Below, piece after piece: positions 3,993-58,761 of a stretch of DNA of 64,000 nucleotides. The position numbers and the translations under genes are program-made. Location: NCBI GenBank assembly GCA_023255955.1, contig JAGDWD010000005.1, forward strand, positions 14,384 to 78,383, written 5' to 3'. The notes under the pieces are model-generated. The model was not told where the DNA came from and did no database searches. It saw nothing but the letters and a program-made list of their open reading frames with translations. Numbering within the stretch: the stretch's first letter is position 1; the number at the start of each line of letters is the position of its first letter. The stretch comes from Desulfurococcales archaeon (GTDB lineage Archaea; Thermoproteota; Thermoprotei_A; Sulfolobales; NBVN01).

Positions 3993-4409
3993 TTATGCTG
4001 TTTTAATAGGTTTAAACTTTATTCCGTAGTATATGACACCGTACGGGTCATCCGACGCATATCTCCTCAGGACGGCCTCGACTCTAGTTCCCTCCTTAAC
4101 CTCCTCGTTGTCCCCGACCCCAACGATCTCACCTACCACCCTAACACCCTCATCGAGCTCAACGACCCCCACAAGTAGGGGCGGCCTCTCATCACTAGAG
4201 TTCCATCTGTACATCACCTTAGTTACATCTAACACCTTACCGAAGCCCTCCGACTCCACATGCTTCACATTACTTGATCCGCAGAACGGGCACACCGACC
4301 TCTTAAACACGGACTTCCTCCCGCAGCTCCCGCATTCCGTTATTATGAGTCTGTACTGGCTTTCCCGAATCCTCCAGAACTGAGATGGGGAGAGCTTCAC
4401 ATAGCTCAC
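3993..4409 (-). CDS. DUF35 Zn-ribbon/OB-fold protein (partner of archaeal thiolase/HMG-CoA synthase)
   Basis: Four-Cys ribbon CGSCGRKSVFKRSVCPFCGS followed by an OB-fold region. It overlaps the thiolase gene by 4 nt. Confidence 0.85.
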   Translation of the reverse strand: MSYVKLSPSQFWRIRESQYRLIITECGSCGRKSVFKRSVCPFCGSSNVKHVESEGFGKVLDVTKVMYRWNSSDERPPLLVGVVELDEGVRVVGEIVGVGDNEEVKEGTRVEAVLRRYASDDPYGVIYYGIKFKPIKTA

Positions 4410-5500
4410 CTCTTCAGAATTAACACCCTAGACACGTTGTCGGGGCCGCTCATCGAGTGAACTAAGCCGTAGTCGGTGGATGCCGTCTTACTCCCCAACC
4501 TATCAGTGAGGAGCTTGAAGACCTCGTATGCTTGGTATACCCCGGTCGCTCCGATTGGGTGGCCTCTAGCTTTAAGTCCCCCGCTTGTGTTTAGGTATTC
4601 AAACTCGTTCAAGTCACACCCACCGTCTAGGTAGCCGAGGCTTCTGAGGATTGCGATTGGGTACGGAGTGTAGCTATCGTGTAGCTCAGTAATCACCTTC
4701 TTCAGGTCTAGTCCGTACCTCTCCAGCGACAGCTTCAGGAGCTTCACTGAGGCGGTTAAGTCCGAGATATTCTCCCTCAAGTAAGCCGGTAGGCCCACCT
4801 CAGTAGCACTGAAGACTATCTCAACTGAGGAAGCATTAGTGTTCGGAGAGCTCGAGACCACGAGAGCAGCCGCTCCGTCACCGAGGGCGAAACTATCGTG
4901 GAGGGTCAGGGGTTCAGCCAGTACCTGGGAGTCCTTGAAGGAGTCGTAAGATATCTTGAACCTGAGCATAGCGTGCGGAATTGATGTCGCGTTTTCATGC
5001 ATCTTCACTGCCCAGCTACTGAAGCACTCCCTCTTCACACCACCCCTCATCAGCTCCTTCATGACTAGTGCGGCGTAAGCTGGTGGACTCACACTCCTCA
5101 GGACCTCGAACTCGTAGTCAAGTATGAGGGAGTAGAAGTAGTTAGTCACATACGTTGGGTAGTCTGTTACTTTCTCAAGTCCTAGGACCAATACCCTCCT
5201 ATTCCTACCTGAAGATACTAAGGAGGCCGCGAGGTCGACAGCAGCTAAGCCAGATGTCTCACCAGACTCCACTCTAACGACCGGAACCCTCCTACCCAGC
5301 CACTGAGCTATGTGCGTGCTTAGATCGACCTGGTGAGCCGTAAGCTCGGGGAGAGCTGACGAGATAACTACGTAATCAACATCTAAACAGTCAGGGCACT
5401 CCTTCACGACATCATATGCTAGATCCCTATATCCGCGCTCGAAGTGTCTATCTACCTTGACTACCGCCCCACTAACTATGTAGGCCCCCATCTCAACCAC
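4406..5500 (-). CDS. archaeal acetoacetyl-CoA thiolase (thiolase-like, SCP-x type)
   Basis: 364 aa with C-terminal GGLKARGHPIGATGVYQ. Sits in the conserved HMGCS-thiolase-DUF35 gene order. Confidence 0.85.
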   Translation of the reverse strand: MVEMGAYIVSGAVVKVDRHFERGYRDLAYDVVKECPDCLDVDYVVISSALPELTAHQVDLSTHIAQWLGRRVPVVRVESGETSGLAAVDLAASLVSSGRNRRVLVLGLEKVTDYPTYVTNYFYSLILDYEFEVLRSVSPPAYAALVMKELMRGGVKRECFSSWAVKMHENATSIPHAMLRFKISYDSFKDSQVLAEPLTLHDSFALGDGAAALVVSSSPNTNASSVEIVFSATEVGLPAYLRENISDLTASVKLLKLSLERYGLDLKKVITELHDSYTPYPIAILRSLGYLDGGCDLNEFEYLNTSGGLKARGHPIGATGVYQAYEVFKLLTDRLGSKTASTDYGLVHSMSGPDNVSRVLILKR

Positions 5501-6545
5501 CTATGTTCCTCAGGTAGAGACCTCTGAACTTAGCGTACACACCGTAGGGGATCGAGACCCTCGAGCTGATCATATCCGAGACTTTAGGCCCCCTACTCAC
5601 TACTTCATAGATGGAGTCCCCCACAACTATGCTGAAAGCATCGCTCCCAGCACCACTACCGAATGTGACTACCAGGATACGGTTCCCGGGCTTAGCCTCC
5701 TCCAATATCTTAGCTAGCCCGAGAAGTGCTGAAGCATTGTACGTGTTACCTATGTAGGGGGTTACGAGGCCCGGCAGGACCTTCTCCTGGGGGATCCCTA
5801 AGGCCCTAGCTACTTGGAGTGGGAACTTACCGTTAGGTTGGTGGAACACTGCGTAGTCGAAGTCGGATGGTTTAAGGCCGGTCTCATCTAGGAGTAGCTT
5901 TGCGGCACTAAGTATGTGGTGGAAGTATGCTGGTTCCCCAGTGAATATCTCACCGTGCTCCGGGTACGGAGACCTGTCCCTTCTCCAGAAGTCGGGGGTG
6001 TCTGTGACATAAGATACGCTAGCCTCTATAGCTGCGGGCGACTTAGACGGGTTCCCGATCACGAAGGCGACGGCCCCCGATGATGCTGTGAAGTCAAGGA
6101 GGTCACCGGGATTTGCTTGCGCGGTGTCAGAGCCTATAACCAGAGTGTTCTGGGCTAGCCCACCCTTCACGAGCCCTATGGAGATCCTTATTCCCTCACC
6201 AGCAGCTCTACAGGCGAATTCGAGATCTGTGGAGAGCTTCCTCCTCTTCACCCCCAGAGCATCAGCAACTATAGTAGCTGAGGGCTTCACAGCGTAGGGC
6301 TTTGACTCAGTCCCGAAGAACACGGCGTCGATATCCTCACCTGAGACACCAGCCCTCTTAAGAGCTACGCGGGCAGCGTACCAACCCATAGTCACAGCGT
6401 CCTCATCCTCCTCAGCCACCGCCTTCTCTACGACCCCGAGGGCCTTAGGTAGCTTTACGTCATATCCCCACAGGGTAGCTATTTCAGTAGCGCTAACCCG
6501 GAATTTAGGGATGTACGCGCCCCAACCTCTAATGCCGGCTTCCAA
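5493..6545 (-). CDS. hydroxymethylglutaryl-CoA synthase (archaeal type)
   Basis: 350 aa with IRGWGAYIPKFRV, FACRAAG (catalytic Cys context), AVFHQPNGKFP and GNTYNASALL. Confidence 0.9.
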   Translation of the reverse strand: MEAGIRGWGAYIPKFRVSATEIATLWGYDVKLPKALGVVEKAVAEEDEDAVTMGWYAARVALKRAGVSGEDIDAVFFGTESKPYAVKPSATIVADALGVKRRKLSTDLEFACRAAGEGIRISIGLVKGGLAQNTLVIGSDTAQANPGDLLDFTASSGAVAFVIGNPSKSPAAIEASVSYVTDTPDFWRRDRSPYPEHGEIFTGEPAYFHHILSAAKLLLDETGLKPSDFDYAVFHQPNGKFPLQVARALGIPQEKVLPGLVTPYIGNTYNASALLGLAKILEEAKPGNRILVVTFGSGAGSDAFSIVVGDSIYEVVSRGPKVSDMISSRVSIPYGVYAKFRGLYLRNIGG

Positions 6546-53609: not shown

Positions 53610-53823
53610 GTACTACTCTGATCTCTTCTAGATAATATAAATATAGCTCTGTTTTATTACTCGAGATTTGTGAGGTAGTACTAGTAGCTCTTCCTGTTTC
53701 CTGAACTTCAAGAGCTATAGATGCTGGCAGGTGTACCCCGCCTTTCCGGTTCGTTAGGTAATCTGTGCTATACGGCTATTACAGTATTTAGAGAAATTAA
53801 AAATATTGTTTGCGGAGGCTTCA

Positions 53824-54801
53824 CTACGCCTTCGGGGACCCTATCCCGAGGCCTAGGTCTATCGGGATTACGATTCCGTTAAGGGCTTCGTTCTCCACTA
53901 TATGTCTAACAAGTTTAGCTACCTCCTCAGGTTCGATAAGCCTAGCTATGGGGGATCTCCTTATGTAGTCTCTGAGTATGGACTTTGGTACAGCTAAGGC
54001 CATCCTAGTCTTTACGAACCCGGGTGCTACAGCAACGACGCGGATTCCGTAGGGGGCTAGCTCCTTAGCTAGTGTGTATGTTAAGCCGATGAGGCCTGCC
54101 TTTGATGCTGCGTAGTTTGCTTGCCCTATATTCCCTAATATCCCGACAATAGACGATATGTTAACTATGACCCCTCCCCCAGACCTAATCATGTAGGGTA
54201 CCGAGGCTTTTGAGCAGTGGAATGCCCCGGTTAGGTTAACCTTTATCACGGCTTCCCAGTCTTCAGGGTTCATTCTCTGTAGATATGAGTCCCTAGTTAT
54301 CCCAGCATTATTTACTAGTACGTTAAGCCTCCCAAGCTTATCGACAACCTCCTTCACGCCCCTCTCCACCGACTCTCTATTTGATACGTCCATAGCTACG
54401 AAGATAGCGTTAGTCCCCGTGGACCTCAGGCTGTTGAGGGTCTTCTCAGCTTCCTGGTCGTAGGATAGATCTGCTATAGCAATAGAGTAGCCAGCTCTAG
54501 CTAGCTCCAACGCTATCGCAGCTCCTATACCTCTAGCACCCCCAGTTACTAAGGCAACCTTCACCGGCTCCTCAAGCCCTACCGGGGTGAACTTCCTTAT
54601 CTTCCCAAAGACAGTCCACTCCTCGGAGACCTCCCCCAGGATACCGGTCCTCAACCTACCGAAGTATTTCCTATCTATCCTAACTATAACCCTATTACCC
54701 TTCTCATCCTCAGCTACCCCGATAGCGTACGTGGACTTATAGGGCGGTACGGGAGTGTAGAGCTCTGTGTACGTAATAAGCTTCCAGAACATCACCCTCA
54801 C
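53824..54801 (-). CDS. fusion protein: DUF35-type OB-fold (no Zn ribbon) + 3-oxoacyl reductase (SDR/FabG-like)
   Basis: The N-terminal ~85 aa (YTPVPPYKSTYAIGVAEDEKGNRVIVRI...GEVSEEW) look like a DUF35 OB-fold. They are followed by VALVTGGARGIGAAIA, NNAGI, YAASKAG and IRVVAVAPG. Confidence 0.75.
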   Translation of the reverse strand: MRVMFWKLITYTELYTPVPPYKSTYAIGVAEDEKGNRVIVRIDRKYFGRLRTGILGEVSEEWTVFGKIRKFTPVGLEEPVKVALVTGGARGIGAAIALELARAGYSIAIADLSYDQEAEKTLNSLRSTGTNAIFVAMDVSNRESVERGVKEVVDKLGRLNVLVNNAGITRDSYLQRMNPEDWEAVIKVNLTGAFHCSKASVPYMIRSGGGVIVNISSIVGILGNIGQANYAASKAGLIGLTYTLAKELAPYGIRVVAVAPGFVKTRMALAVPKSILRDYIRRSPIARLIEPEEVAKLVRHIVENEALNGIVIPIDLGLGIGSPKA

Positions 54802-55943
54802 CTCGAGAAAATAGCTACTACAGCTGTGGACCCAGTCCCTCCGTGGTTCTCCATGAGACCCCTCTCAGCACCCTTAACCTGCCTCTCACCCGCCTCACCC
54901 CTCAACTGCCAGAACAGCTCAGCCGCCATACCAACACCAGTCGCACCGATAGGGTGCCCCTTAGATTTCAGCCCACCGCTAGGGTTGACAGGCTTGGAAC
55001 CGGTGAATGCGGTAATCCCCTCCTTCAGTATCTTCACACCCTCACCCCTCTGAGCTAAGCCAAGCATCTCGTACGCTATTAACTCGGACACTGTGAACGC
55101 GTCATGCACCTCCAGGACATCTACGTCCCTTACCGTAAGCCCGGAAGCATTGAAGGCCTCTCTAGCAGCTGCGGAGATAGCCTTCAACGCGGTTATATCG
55201 TCCCGCTCGAAAATCCCGGCAGTATCGTGAGCCAGCCCGATACCCTCTATATAGACCGGGGTATCAGTGAACTTCTTCGGCTCCCCGCTCACTAGGAGGG
55301 CTACGGCTCCATCACTTACTAGCGAGCAGTCGTAAAGTTTCAAGGGCCATGAGACGTAGGGGGACCTCATCACGTCCTCCACAGTCACCTTCCTACGCAT
55401 AGCAGCTAACGGATTTCTAAGCCCGTTCTCATGGTTTTTAACTGCTACGAGAGCTAGATCCTCCTCAGTAACTCCGTACCTATCCATGTATGCCTTAGCT
55501 ATGAGAGCGTAGAGGGAGACGAAGGGGACCCCGGCAACCACCTCTTCAGGGTGCCCGGCAGCCATTAGAACCTCGTTTGCTTCAGCACTCGTAGGTTGGT
55601 AACTCATCTTCTCGAAGCCTACTATGAGGACGTTCCTAGCTAGTCCCGCCCTTATCATGTTCCAAGCTAAGTAGATAGCTGTCCCACCAGACGCGCAGGC
55701 ATTCTCAACTCTAAATCCTTTGCTAGCACCAACCTTGGAGGCTACGTAGGGTGCTGTGTGGAGTATCCCACCAAACCTATCGGAGAAGCTTGAGGTTATT
55801 ACTAGGTCTATATCCCCCTTACCCACACCCTTCTCCACAGACCTGAGAAGCCCCTGAACAACCTCATCTATCAGCTCCCAAGCCTCCTTCTCGGATCTAA
55901 GCTCGTATTTAGTACTGTAAGTAGCTACTATACCCACCTTCAA
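54798..55943 (-). CDS. thiolase-like protein (SCP-x/archaeal acetyl-CoA acetyltransferase type)
   Basis: 381 aa; ENACASGGTA (Cys), VNPSGGLKSKGHPIGATGV, ENHGGTGS. It overlaps the OB-SDR gene by 4 nt. Confidence 0.85.
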   Translation of the reverse strand: MKVGIVATYSTKYELRSEKEAWELIDEVVQGLLRSVEKGVGKGDIDLVITSSFSDRFGGILHTAPYVASKVGASKGFRVENACASGGTAIYLAWNMIRAGLARNVLIVGFEKMSYQPTSAEANEVLMAAGHPEEVVAGVPFVSLYALIAKAYMDRYGVTEEDLALVAVKNHENGLRNPLAAMRRKVTVEDVMRSPYVSWPLKLYDCSLVSDGAVALLVSGEPKKFTDTPVYIEGIGLAHDTAGIFERDDITALKAISAAAREAFNASGLTVRDVDVLEVHDAFTVSELIAYEMLGLAQRGEGVKILKEGITAFTGSKPVNPSGGLKSKGHPIGATGVGMAAELFWQLRGEAGERQVKGAERGLMENHGGTGSTAVVAIFSR

Positions 55944-55989
55944 TGTCTAACTCCACCTATGTTACCGCTCCACAGCATTAAACTAGTTT

Positions 55990-56055: not shown

Positions 56056-56820
56056 CTAGCTCCTCTTCGCATGCTTTGAGGTGTTACTGATTCGAGGCCT
56101 CGAGTGGGAGAACCCATCAAACGTACTTAGGGAGAGGCTCACTAGGTTCCTCTCAGCTCTCCGGAGAGTCTTAGCGGCAGCTATTCTCGAGATTCCATGC
56201 TTCCTAGCTATCTCAGCTATACCTGCCCTCCTAGGCCAGTCATAGTAACCTAGCTCCAGGGCGGTAGATAGAAGTTTTATCTGCTTATCAGTCAGCTTGT
56301 TCAGCCCTCCAGAGACGAAGAACAGCATGTCCACGTAGTTGACCTGTGATAGTGTGAGCTCCGAGATCTCGGCTAGCCTGTACTTCTCTATATAATCAAC
56401 CTCGGAGACTCTCTTCATAAACTCTCTTAAGTCCCTAGATGTATGGAAACCTAGGGTCCACCTCTCGAAGCCGTCCATAGCTATCCAAGCAGTTAAAGGC
56501 ACGGCATCGTAGTTTACGGCAGCCTCCATAGTGCTGGTCTTCTCTATTAACATACGTAGCTTGATCTGGTTCTTCCTTCTCTGAATTATCTCATACGACT
56601 TCACATTCCTTATTGAACCTAACTTACTCATGGATCTACCGAGAACATGTTCATCACCGAAGATAACGACGTAAATCCTCTCAAGTCCTCTCTCTATCTC
56701 CGTTACGTTAGCACCTACTACTATGATCTTAGAATCCCGCACGTTCTCAGTTAACTGAACTACCGGGCAGTCATACTGGACTATATCGAAAGCACCTACA
56801 TGCAAACTCTTAAGTCCCAT
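56056..56820 (-). CDS. HTH_10 (Bat-type) DNA-binding transcriptional regulator
   Basis: C-terminal LTDKQIKLLSTALELGYYDWPRRAGIAEIARKHGISRIAAAKTLRRAERNLV. Confidence 0.75.
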   Translation of the reverse strand: MGLKSLHVGAFDIVQYDCPVVQLTENVRDSKIIVVGANVTEIERGLERIYVVIFGDEHVLGRSMSKLGSIRNVKSYEIIQRRKNQIKLRMLIEKTSTMEAAVNYDAVPLTAWIAMDGFERWTLGFHTSRDLREFMKRVSEVDYIEKYRLAEISELTLSQVNYVDMLFFVSGGLNKLTDKQIKLLSTALELGYYDWPRRAGIAEIARKHGISRIAAAKTLRRAERNLVSLSLSTFDGFSHSRPRISNTSKHAKRS

Positions 56821-56902: not shown

Positions 56903-57781
56903 CTAGTGATTACTCATAGGGTTACTACGTATAAATCCGGTAAGCAGGTAGTTGACGGTGCCCGGCTTTTCAAGGACGACTGCGTGGCCGGCTTCCCTCA
57001 CTTCCACGTAGGTAGAGTTAGGTATAGATCTAGCTATTATCTTAGAGTACTTAGGAGGCTTTACTCTATCCTCCTCGGCTGCGACTACTAGTGTAGGTAC
57101 ATCTATATCTTTAAGTAGCTGTGTGATGGGGTTCTCTGATAACCTCAAGAATGATTTCAGTAGGAAGGTAGCGGCATCGAAGTCGAACTTCTGGGAGGAG
57201 AAGTACTCTACGAGCCGCGTAAAGAAGGTCCTATCCTGTCGTGATATGAAGTTCTCTGAGTAGACATCATTGATCCACGATAGGACGAACTTTCTAGGAT
57301 CACGTGACATAGCTCCTTCCAGCCACCTCAGCGCGGTCAGTCTAAGAGCTTCATGTACCTCGCTAACGGAGGTTATGATCGATAGGTCGTTGACGTACTC
57401 CCTATACTTTAAGGCGAACACCATAGCAACTTCACCACCGTATGATGTCCCAACAAGGTGGACCTTCCTAAACCCTAGAAAGTCGAGGAGGTTTCGCAGG
57501 TCCTCAGCGTGGATTTCGAGACTATATGCTTTCTCGTCTCTAGGTTTATCGGACTCCCACTGACCCCTCATATCGTGAAGTACTACGGTATAGCCATACC
57601 TAGCTAGGTGATTTCTCTGGAAGACCCAGCTAGCGGTGCTCATGAATATTCCGTTGAGGAGTACTACTGGCTCTCCCTGCCCTACAACCTCGTAGTATAT
57701 CCTTACGTCAGATACATTAACAAAAGGCAGTGAGCTCACCCCGGCTACCGTGAGGCTACCTCGTACTACCGCTCTACCCAC
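56903..57781 (-). CDS. alpha/beta-fold hydrolase
   Basis: 292 aa; nucleophile elbow GTSYGG, HDMRGQWES, C-terminal GHAVVLEKP. It overlaps the KASIII-like gene by 16 nt. Confidence 0.8.
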   Translation of the reverse strand: MGRAVVRGSLTVAGVSSLPFVNVSDVRIYYEVVGQGEPVVLLNGIFMSTASWVFQRNHLARYGYTVVLHDMRGQWESDKPRDEKAYSLEIHAEDLRNLLDFLGFRKVHLVGTSYGGEVAMVFALKYREYVNDLSIITSVSEVHEALRLTALRWLEGAMSRDPRKFVLSWINDVYSENFISRQDRTFFTRLVEYFSSQKFDFDAATFLLKSFLRLSENPITQLLKDIDVPTLVVAAEEDRVKPPKYSKIIARSIPNSTYVEVREAGHAVVLEKPGTVNYLLTGFIRSNPMSNH

Positions 57782-58761
57782 CTGAAGGCTACAGCTCCCT
57801 GCTGATACCCCACTCCTGAAGCAACGAATATCACGACCTTACCCTTCTCGATCTTTCCCTGCTCGATAGCGTCGTGTAGAGCCATATACACACACGCTGA
57901 CCCGGTATAGCCGAACTTATCCATAACCCAGTGGGTCTTCGTCTCCGGGAGGCCTAAGCCCTTCATCACGTCAAGGATGGTCTTTAGCCGTACCTGTGTG
58001 AATATTATCTGGGTAATATCATCGAGACCTATGTTTGCTTGGTTCATGACGTCTCTTATTAGTACCGGCCAGTACTGATCGTTCACTGGTGGGTAGGCTT
58101 TTCTCAGGTCTAGGAAGGGTAGGTTCTCGTCTGAGATCTGCTCAGCTACGGGCTTCCAAGCACCTAGGAAGATTCCCCAGTAGTCCCAGAAACTCCCATC
58201 AGCACGTAACTTACCTGCTAGGTAGCCAGGTTCTTTCGAGCTAGTTAGAACGACGGCTCCGGCACCGTCCGAGAATATCCACTCCCACATGAACTTCCAT
58301 CTGAGGAACCTAGTCATAGCGTAAACACCTATTACCAGTATGTTCCTGTACTTTGGATTACCTGCTATTATAGAGGAAGCTAGCTCGAGCATGTAGACCG
58401 GGTTAGCGCAGGATGCGTTAACGTCGAAGGAAGGTATCTCATAGCTACTACCACCAAGTAGGTTCAGGACTTTGGGGGCTGTTGGGGGAGATATAGCCTC
58501 CGGGGTGTCGGTACCTAGAATAATCATGTCTATGTCCTCGATGGTCATACCTGCCCTCTCAAGAGCCATGGAGGCTGCTTTAGCAGCCATAGTTGCTGGT
58601 GTCTCCTCAGGTGGGGCTATTCTCTTCACCCTCAACCCGGTTCTCTCTATGAATAGGGGATCAACCTTTATCCCAGTCTTCCTCTCGAAGTCCTCCGGAG
58701 TCATAACTATAGGTGGTACATAGATCCCTGTAGAGGCTATGGCAGCATATCTTTCAGGCAA
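57766..58761 (-). CDS. 3-oxoacyl synthase III (FabH/KASIII)-like condensing-enzyme homologue with atypical active-site positions
   Basis: 331 aa; DVNASCANPVY (Cys context), SDGAGAVVL, C-terminal GVGYQQGAVAFRW. By-eye alignment puts IFTQVR and GYTGSA where FabH has HQAN and GNTSAAS. Confidence 0.7.
   Translation of the reverse strand: MPERYAAIASTGIYVPPIVMTPEDFERKTGIKVDPLFIERTGLRVKRIAPPEETPATMAAKAASMALERAGMTIEDIDMIILGTDTPEAISPPTAPKVLNLLGGSSYEIPSFDVNASCANPVYMLELASSIIAGNPKYRNILVIGVYAMTRFLRWKFMWEWIFSDGAGAVVLTSSKEPGYLAGKLRADGSFWDYWGIFLGAWKPVAEQISDENLPFLDLRKAYPPVNDQYWPVLIRDVMNQANIGLDDITQIIFTQVRLKTILDVMKGLGLPETKTHWVMDKFGYTGSACVYMALHDAIEQGKIEKGKVVIFVASGVGYQQGAVAFRWVER

Follow-up and report, generated by a model that had tools for sequence, protein, structure and literature searches.

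A 64,000-nucleotide stretch from the genome of a hot-spring Desulfurococcales archaeon (contig JAGDWD010000005.1, positions 14,384 to 78,383 of the forward strand; hereafter the window) carries a gene whose product joins a reductase of the short-chain dehydrogenase/reductase (SDR) type to an N-terminal domain that we assign, from profile comparison and structural modelling, to the OB fold of DUF35. This OB-SDR gene (53824..54792, minus strand) lies directly behind the gene for an archaeal-type thiolase (54798..55943, minus strand), and we consider it likely that the OB domain tethers the ketoacyl-coenzyme A (CoA) reductase to the thiolase, so that 3-ketoacyl-CoA is handed over locally. The pair is a real, conserved and mis-annotated fused variant of complexes that have been described before, and it brings with it no new principle or mechanism.

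The thiolase, the first gene of the pair, starts with TTG and encodes a protein of 381 residues that is matched by both Thiolase_N and Thiolase_C_1 (Pfam) and, with 376 bits, by the archaeal-type model NF004720 (NCBIfam), in keeping with an archaeal/SCP2-type enzyme. Its catalytic Cys83, the HDxF motif (residues 280-283; His280-Asp-x-Phe) and His330 show no variation in an alignment of 15 partner thiolases, and DUF35-partnered thiolases are among its nearest solved relatives (6ESQ_A, E 8.7e-58; 7PXP_C; 5M3K_C; 9MYR_A). The sequence-only reading had placed a 325-residue open reading frame behind this gene with an overlap of 4 nucleotides. Both reading frames exist, and the overlap with the thiolase stop follows if the second gene starts at the GTG at 54801 (53824-54801, minus strand; 325 residues). 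The likelier start, however, is the ATG at 54792, because the homologues all begin there (their first Met corresponds to this ATG in 24 of 24 cases, in an alignment of 25 sequences that includes the window protein) and because the Shine-Dalgarno-like GGTGAGGGTG precedes it. The OB-SDR product is then likely to comprise 322 residues, ending at the TAG at 53824-53826, and a spacer of 5 nucleotides would separate its gene from the thiolase gene; in relatives the corresponding gap is 2-8 nucleotides. Residue numbers given here for OB-SDR count from the 325-residue reading. A TTTAAT box upstream of the thiolase start (55977..55982, minus strand) is a candidate archaeal TATA element and a T-rich stretch just past the OB-SDR stop (53791..53806, minus strand) a candidate archaeal terminator, and both, as read from the sequence, would fit a bicistronic operon of the two genes.

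In the OB-SDR protein an N-terminal OB domain of ~75 residues is followed by a short linker and then by a complete classical SDR. The first of these, predicted to span residues 4-76 (54574..54792, minus strand), had been taken from the sequence for the OB half of DUF35 without its Cys4 ribbon, and hhalign, a family hidden Markov model (HMM) and an AlphaFold2 (AF2) model all find the DUF35 similarity. When an alignment of 30 members of the domain was compared by hhalign with 29 Thermoprotei DUF35 OB domains, the reference alignment being drawn from 29 genomes of this same class, the two matched over 54 columns with 97.2% probability (E 3.9e-11). The HMM built from the 30 diverse members matches the M. 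thermolithotrophicus DUF35 subunit, 6ESQ_E, with E 1.1e-7 and ChsH2-DUF35 with E 0.003, and in genome searches the family profile also retrieves canonical DUF35 genes, with E values as low as 7e-12. PF01796 is matched individually by 11 of the 30 members (best E 5.3e-5). The relation of the OB domain to DUF35 is thus one of remote homology, below the Pfam threshold for single sequences.

The structural comparisons point the same way. AF2 predicts, for the domain alone, a five-stranded barrel with a short helix between strands three and four, at a predicted local distance difference test score (pLDDT) of 84. The top five Foldseek matches of this model are all DUF35 (TMq 0.71-0.76), and in a comparison with 48,161 chains by VIA-align, an aligner independent of Foldseek, the top seven are all OB halves of DUF35-family proteins, namely ChsH2, an archaeal DUF35, BbsA, PhlB, Trf, MucC and Shy (Z 9.1-7.5, root mean square deviation 1.8-3.2, 67-75 residues), unrelated OB folds reaching Z 6.7 at most. 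We found no trace of the zinc ribbon: residues 1-80 contain no Cys, PF12172 is not matched, and the OB fold begins at residue ~4. In the thiolase encoded upstream, that protein's own Thiolase_C_1 domain extends to the last residue, 381 of 381. On this sequence and model evidence we regard the N-terminal ~75 residues as a DUF35 OB fold from which the zinc ribbon has been lost. Such a loss is unusual, because the architecture of zinc ribbon plus OB fold has been described as conserved across all DUF35 homologues (Krishna et al. 2010, PMC2954200) and because zinc is bound by every structurally characterised DUF35 protein, according to a further account (PMC6996347).

The remainder of the protein (residues 81-325; 53827..54561, minus strand) is a FabG-like SDR, which we read as a 3-ketoacyl-CoA reductase/(3R)-hydroxyacyl-CoA dehydrogenase. 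Pfam adh_short covers it from residue 81 to the end with 215 bits, against a cut-off of 26.6, and the subfamily model NF009466 exceeds its cut-off of 222 with 244.1 bits. The FabG equivalog models stay below theirs (TIGR01830, 259.9 versus 297.75; NF004198, 249 versus 296), and so does AcAcCoA_reduct (228 versus 302). The complete set of SDR motifs noticed in the sequence-only reading (TGGARGIG, NNAGI and YxxxK) is borne out: TGGARGIG lies at residues 86-93 and NNAGI at 164-168, and together with Asn189, Ser216/217, Tyr230 and Lys234 they are nearly all invariant in the 25 sequences. By the usual rule for SDR enzymes, an Asp at the end of β2 points to NAD(H). Asp111, which occupies this position, aligns with the Asp of 4NBU and of 2ET6, the (3R)-hydroxyacyl-CoA dehydrogenase of yeast MFE-2 that stands with FabG-like enzymes among the nearest solved relatives of the domain. 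OB-SDR is accordingly predicted, from its sequence, to prefer NAD(H) and to be (R)-specific. A whole-genome search found no PP-binding/acyl carrier protein (ACP) gene in this genome, which is 97% complete. Because the genome is without ACP, we infer that the substrates of OB-SDR are CoA thioesters rather than acyl-ACP, and for the same reason the name "3-oxoacyl-ACP reductase FabG", under which the family appears in databases, is unlikely to be correct and is misleading. Two further OB-fused, SDR-like proteins, P0032 (321 residues) and P0034 (319 residues), seem by eye to be without both TGxxxGxG and the catalytic Tyr/Lys, and may be pseudo-enzymes that have retained the docking domain.

The fusion is kept in at least 28 protein clusters of 321-327 residues from Sulfolobales/Desulfurococcaceae-type metagenome-assembled genomes (MAGs) and from Thermofilum. 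Where these clusters are named at all they are called 3-oxoacyl-ACP reductase FabG, and none of them carries DUF35/PF01796 in precomputed annotations. An artefactual gene fusion is ruled out by the number of these clusters and by occurrence in single-contig genomes. A single-sequence scan of 1.8 billion representatives returned 32 relatives, and among 401 sampled genomes of the phylum the fusion is present in five, the window genome counted, the weaker matches being canonical DUF35 genes.

A thiolase gene lies directly upstream in every locus examined. This holds for all 13 species-representative loci, a set found with a closer alignment that reaches close relatives only, and also for three Thermofilum assemblies, a Thermoproteota-like contig (L028) and two distant OB-SDR genes. 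The OB-only domain is, moreover, fused to 3-hydroxyacyl-CoA dehydrogenases of the non-homologous 3HCDH family, again directly behind a thiolase, and it occurs as a stand-alone gene of 78 residues that likewise follows a thiolase. The SDR and 3HCDH types were the only two fusions found among longer proteins with the OB-only domain. That two unrelated reductase families carry the domain behind a thiolase points to a role in docking that is linked with the 3-keto step. A quick tree places the 21 Thermoproteota partner thiolases in one clade, apart from DUF35-linked thiolases (Shimodaira-Hasegawa-like approximate likelihood ratio test 95), and the four partner thiolases from glycan-related gene clusters in a second clade in which SDR and 3HCDH fusions are mixed; it is compatible with either a single origin or separate origins of the OB-only partner thiolases.

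Modelled as a complex, the thiolase and the OB domain gave a score of 0.86, compared with 0.00 for the best of three controls, and so pass a mark that is attained by 58 of 80 solved complexes and by two of 110 mismatched pairs. The runs have at least 93% of their contacts in common, with a partner pLDDT of 84 or more. The pass may reflect likeness to solved thiolase/DUF35 complexes rather than binding by the window copy, and the predicted interface residues, when compared by eye with the positions that do not vary in the thiolase alignment, showed no clear enrichment. Docking of the reductase onto the thiolase, as proposed from the sequence, appears the best reading because the complex model places the OB domain on the thiolase, and the identity of the OB domain and the strict thiolase adjacency join the model in its favour.

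In the mechanism that we propose, the thiolase would make or cleave the C-C bond of a 3-ketoacyl-CoA and OB-SDR would interconvert 3-ketoacyl-CoA and 3-hydroxyacyl-CoA. By binding the thiolase in the manner of DUF35 in the solved complexes, the OB fold would hold the reductase close to the active site of its partner. The unstable and thermodynamically awkward 3-ketoacyl-CoA could then pass directly between the two active sites, with reduction pulling the Claisen condensation forward or, in the opposite direction, thiolysis pulling the unfavourable oxidation forward. Physical binding is what the complex model suggests, and channelling, the chain length and the direction are each proposed here by inference.

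Several points weigh against this proposal. The single-sequence signal of the domain is weak, Pfam giving no match on OB-SDR residues 1-90, and when the profile of the OB domain is compared with the two DUF35 proteins of the genome taken singly, hhalign returns probabilities of 15% and 30%. In the solved archaeal complex the thiolase contacts the cleft between zinc ribbon and OB fold (PMC6996347); a ribbon-less domain has half of this contact surface, and its binding might be different or weak. The binding of OB-SDR to the thiolase is a modelled one, and the predicted cofactor and stereospecificity both derive from alignment. The fusion in itself, finally, gives no direction, the Thermoproteota context looking catabolic and the glycan contexts biosynthetic.

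It is also conceivable that the OB domain is no thiolase anchor, and that it acts instead as an acyl-CoA delivery module, in self-assembly of the SDR, or in RNA binding like the DUF35 protein Trf. Acyl-CoA binding was indeed proposed for DUF35 by Krishna et al. (2010, PMC2954200), the domain has Trf as one of its structural matches (6HTJ, Z 7.9), and the zinc-ribbon half of the thiolase-binding cleft is absent. We nevertheless hold a role of this kind to be improbable, given that DUF35 is a protein scaffold in every solved complex (PMC6996347), that thiolase adjacency is strict in three architectures, and that the complex model passes, with the caveat about likeness given above.

That a thiolase can be physically coupled to a 3-hydroxyacyl-CoA dehydrogenase is familiar from the trifunctional β-oxidation complexes of the FadBA type in bacteria and mitochondria. 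In these the dehydrogenase is a 3HCDH fused to a crotonase, the thiolase belongs to another subfamily, and there is no OB/DUF35 element.

Tethering of the reductase to the thiolase by the OB domain would have closer counterparts among DUF35 systems. In S. acidocaldarius the ketothiolase Saci_1121 and the DUF35 protein Saci_1120 bind an SDR ketoacyl-CoA reductase, Saci_1104, which is strictly NADPH-dependent, and a MaoC dehydratase, Saci_1085 (bioRxiv 10.1101/2024.07.05.601840). The window pair shares with that complex an archaeal-type thiolase, a DUF35-type element that would bring a FabG-like SDR to the thiolase, and the presumed use of CoA thioesters, but its DUF35 element is fused to the reductase and ribbon-less, the operon does not encode DUF35 separately, the genome is without the dehydratase partner, and NAD(H) is the predicted cofactor. 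The ChsH2(DUF35)-Ltp2 and Shy(DUF35)-Sal steroid side-chain aldolase complexes (6OK1, 9MYR) resemble it in that an enzyme-fused DUF35 docks onto a thiolase-fold partner encoded next door, and their DUF35 domains are among the top structural matches of the OB domain (Z 9.1 and 7.5). It is the DUF35 domain of Shy, and not its MaoC domain, that co-purifies with the thiolase-fold protein Sal, as has been reported (PMC11321319). These complexes differ in that DUF35 is joined to a MaoC hydratase, stands C-terminally and has its zinc ribbon, the partner is an aldolase rather than a true thiolase, and the setting is bacterial steroid catabolism. The thiolase/HMGCS/DUF35 complex of M. thermolithotrophicus (6ESQ; HMGCS, the synthase of 3-hydroxy-3-methylglutaryl-CoA, HMG-CoA) has a thiolase of the same family, couples the unfavourable condensation to the next step, and supplies the best sequence match of the OB domain, the subunit 6ESQ_E already mentioned; it differs in having HMGCS downstream instead of a reductase and DUF35 as a free subunit with a zinc ribbon. 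DUF35-Rossmann fusions as a type are likewise on record, in that Krishna et al. (2010, PMC2954200) list fusions of DUF35 to thiolases, Rossmann-fold SDR-like domains, SCP2 and hot-dog dehydratases. The window family is unlike the listed ones in being OB-only and in going unseen by PF01796 in precomputed annotations.

Already known, then, are DUF35-Rossmann fusions (2010, PMC2954200), DUF35-mediated assembly of thiolase and reductase (2024, bioRxiv 10.1101/2024.07.05.601840) and docking fusions of enzymes with DUF35 (6OK1, 9MYR). What sets the OB-SDR system apart is that the domain has lost its zinc ribbon, that it stands at the N-terminus and that one tag is used by two unrelated reductase families. 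The fusion acts as a natural "Rosetta stone", lending independent genomic support to the 2024 result that DUF35 recruits a reductase in archaea, and the OB half probably suffices for docking even when ribbon-less, which would make it a minimal docking unit. It also exposes a systematic gap in annotation, since the family is named after the FabG ACP-reductase where ACP is absent and its N-terminal domain goes unannotated. For engineering, a 75-residue tag that brings a reductase to a thiolase could help reverse β-oxidation or polyhydroxybutyrate pathways, limited by the thiolase equilibrium.

The pair is one of several thiolase systems in the genome. The window also holds the canonical HMG-CoA synthase/thiolase/DUF35 mevalonate operon (3993..6545, minus strand; NF003274, Pfam), which the sequence-only reading had recognised correctly: its HMGCS matches NF003274 with 518 bits, and its DUF35 has both zinc ribbon and OB fold. 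The OB-SDR set is distinct from this operon, as that reading held, but it is not the "second" thiolase system that it was called there. The genome has three thiolases, the third standing with a canonical DUF35 in a β-oxidation cluster on another contig (C5:24700-32400; L024:2763-10408), which comprises 3HCDH, crotonase, acyl-CoA dehydrogenase, the β and α subunits of electron transfer flavoprotein, a 254-residue open reading frame without a Pfam match, the thiolase and the DUF35 gene.

Around the pair itself, the gene next upstream of the thiolase encodes an HTH_10 (Bat-type) transcription regulator (56056..56820, minus strand; Pfam HTH_10, E 1.4e-18). Such a gene adjoins the pair in every species-representative locus but L015 (12 of 13) and also in Thermofilum and on L028. 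In the Sulfolobales-type MAGs its place is upstream on the same strand; Thermofilum and L028 have it downstream on the opposite strand, and there the protein also matches HVO_2525_N. It is likely to be a dedicated regulator. Further upstream follow, by Pfam and NCBIfam, an α/β hydrolase of 292 residues with the nucleophile motif GTSYG (56903-57781, minus strand) and a FabH-like protein (57766-58761, minus strand), both of which co-occur with the pair in Sulfolobales-type MAGs, in Thermofilum and on L028. The hydrolase matches polyhydroxyalkanoate (PHA) depolymerase and esterase models weakly, in all cases far below the family cut-offs. PHA synthesis by a PhaA/PhaB/PhaC set was considered and ruled out, since the hydrolase nucleophile is Ser (GTSYG) and the protein is merely 292 residues long. 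The Thermoproteota neighbourhood as a whole consists of HTH_10, one or two α/β hydrolases, the FabH-like gene, a Liv-type ABC importer and a family III CoA-transferase or AMP-binding ligase.

Outside Thermoproteota, members of the family stand, with their thiolase, inside clusters for the modification of amino sugars and glycans. This is true of OB-3HCDH fusions (L003, L025/L026), of stand-alone OB genes (L004/L005) and of OB-SDR fusions (L006/L007, L027), and the clusters hold DegT aminotransferases, PIG-L deacetylases, NeuB, WbqC, Epimerase_2, acyltransferases of the GNAT, FemAB and hexapeptide types, and glycosyltransferases. These contexts suggest that the pair there supplies 3-hydroxybutyryl-CoA for the N-acylation of sugars.

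In this genome the module probably begins or ends at 3-hydroxyacyl-CoA, and its likeliest substrate or product is a 3-hydroxyacyl-CoA of short chain, for instance 3-hydroxybutyryl-CoA, rather than a fatty acyl chain under elongation. An acyl-CoA elongation module, one of the roles first suggested for the pair, finds no backing in the gene content. No match to the hot-dog dehydratases of the MaoC, FAS1-type or FabA/FabZ families (PF01575, PF13452, PF07977) was found in the 97%-complete genome, in searches to which control genomes responded, and the only hydratase is the crotonase within the β-oxidation cluster. Thiolase, DUF35-type domain and SDR reductase are three known components of the complex that forms the condensing and reducing core of an ACP-independent fatty-acid synthase, with repeated elongation, in Sulfolobus acidocaldarius; an ACP gene is indeed missing from the window genome, and one gene of the medium-chain dehydrogenase/reductase type (ADH_zinc_N) elsewhere on the contig could encode an enoyl reductase. 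Even so, we hold such a core to be very improbable here, as the dehydratases are not found, the crotonase has its place in β-oxidation, the predicted cofactor is NAD(H) and not NADPH, and no conserved neighbourhood examined includes a dehydratase or an enoyl reductase. The absence of ACP and of those dehydratases from the genome, together with its separate β-oxidation cluster, makes an iterative synthase of the Sulfolobus type unlikely.

Two directions are then left to weigh for a tethered thiolase and reductase. In the catabolic one, which is a direction-specific version of the tethering proposal, the pair would oxidise (R)-3-hydroxyacyl-CoA with NAD+ and cleave the resulting ketoacyl-CoA to acetyl-CoA, the substrate being for example 3-hydroxybutyryl-CoA, which could come from an imported or ester-derived hydroxy acid; the pair would thus serve the neighbouring importer and serine hydrolase and, in relatives, the CoA-transferase or acyl-CoA synthetase. 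The alignment of Asp111 with 2ET6 and 4NBU favours this direction, as do the Liv-type importer and the α/β serine hydrolase of the conserved cluster with its weak PHA depolymerase/esterase matches, the family III CoA-transferase or AMP-binding ligase added by relatives, and the lack of a dehydratase with which a synthetic cycle could continue. Set against this are the full β-oxidation cluster, which already provides the genome with an NAD-type 3HCDH and a thiolase/DUF35 pair of its own, the absence of the CoA-transferase from the window cluster together with the broken look of its sole genomic copy, and hydrolase matches that all lie far below the family cut-offs. We regard catabolism as a serious candidate, somewhat short of probable. 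In the biosynthetic direction, two acetyl-CoA would be condensed and reduced, without further elongation, to 3-hydroxybutyryl-CoA or a 3-hydroxyacyl-CoA of greater length, for use as building block or electron sink. Here the glycan clusters with distant OB-SDR, OB-3HCDH and stand-alone OB genes carry weight, since only the synthetic direction makes sense in them, and tethering is a known remedy for the unfavourable Claisen step (bioRxiv 10.1101/2024.07.05.601840). The window neighbourhood, however, offers no acyltransferase or polymerase to consume a 3-hydroxyacyl-CoA, the hydrolase has Ser and not the Cys of PHA synthases, and the predicted preference for NAD(H) is less typical of biosynthetic reductases, Saci_1104 being strictly NADPH-dependent. 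Synthesis in this organism seems to us possible but doubtful.

A bolder view takes the ribbon-less OB domain as a portable thiolase-docking tag, placed on two unrelated ketoacyl-CoA reductase families, that in the Thermoproteota cluster could nucleate a three-part assembly of thiolase, OB-SDR and the FabH-like protein, analogous to HMGCS/thiolase/DUF35 or PhlABC, which would make or break a 3-hydroxyacyl-derived compound. The FabH-like protein could be a non-decarboxylating partner like PhlA or HMGCS; the view as a whole is a long shot.

Some smaller observations concern the genes upstream of the pair. In relatives, a gene for a family III CoA-transferase lies between the FabH-like and hydrolase genes (L011:1591-2880; L028:10651-11964); in the window these two genes overlap and the CoA-transferase is absent from the cluster. 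The sole CoA_transf_3 match in the genome (C13:33203-34229) falls into three frames, with a TAG inside it, and is, to judge from its reading frames, probably a pseudogene. The nucleophile Cys of the FabH-like protein is retained (NASCAN). On inspection by eye, TQVR stands in place of the HQAN of FabH and GYTGSA in place of GNTSAAS, the His/Asn pair seemingly being lost, and the protein is 82-87% identical among the MAGs, above the conservation of its neighbours.

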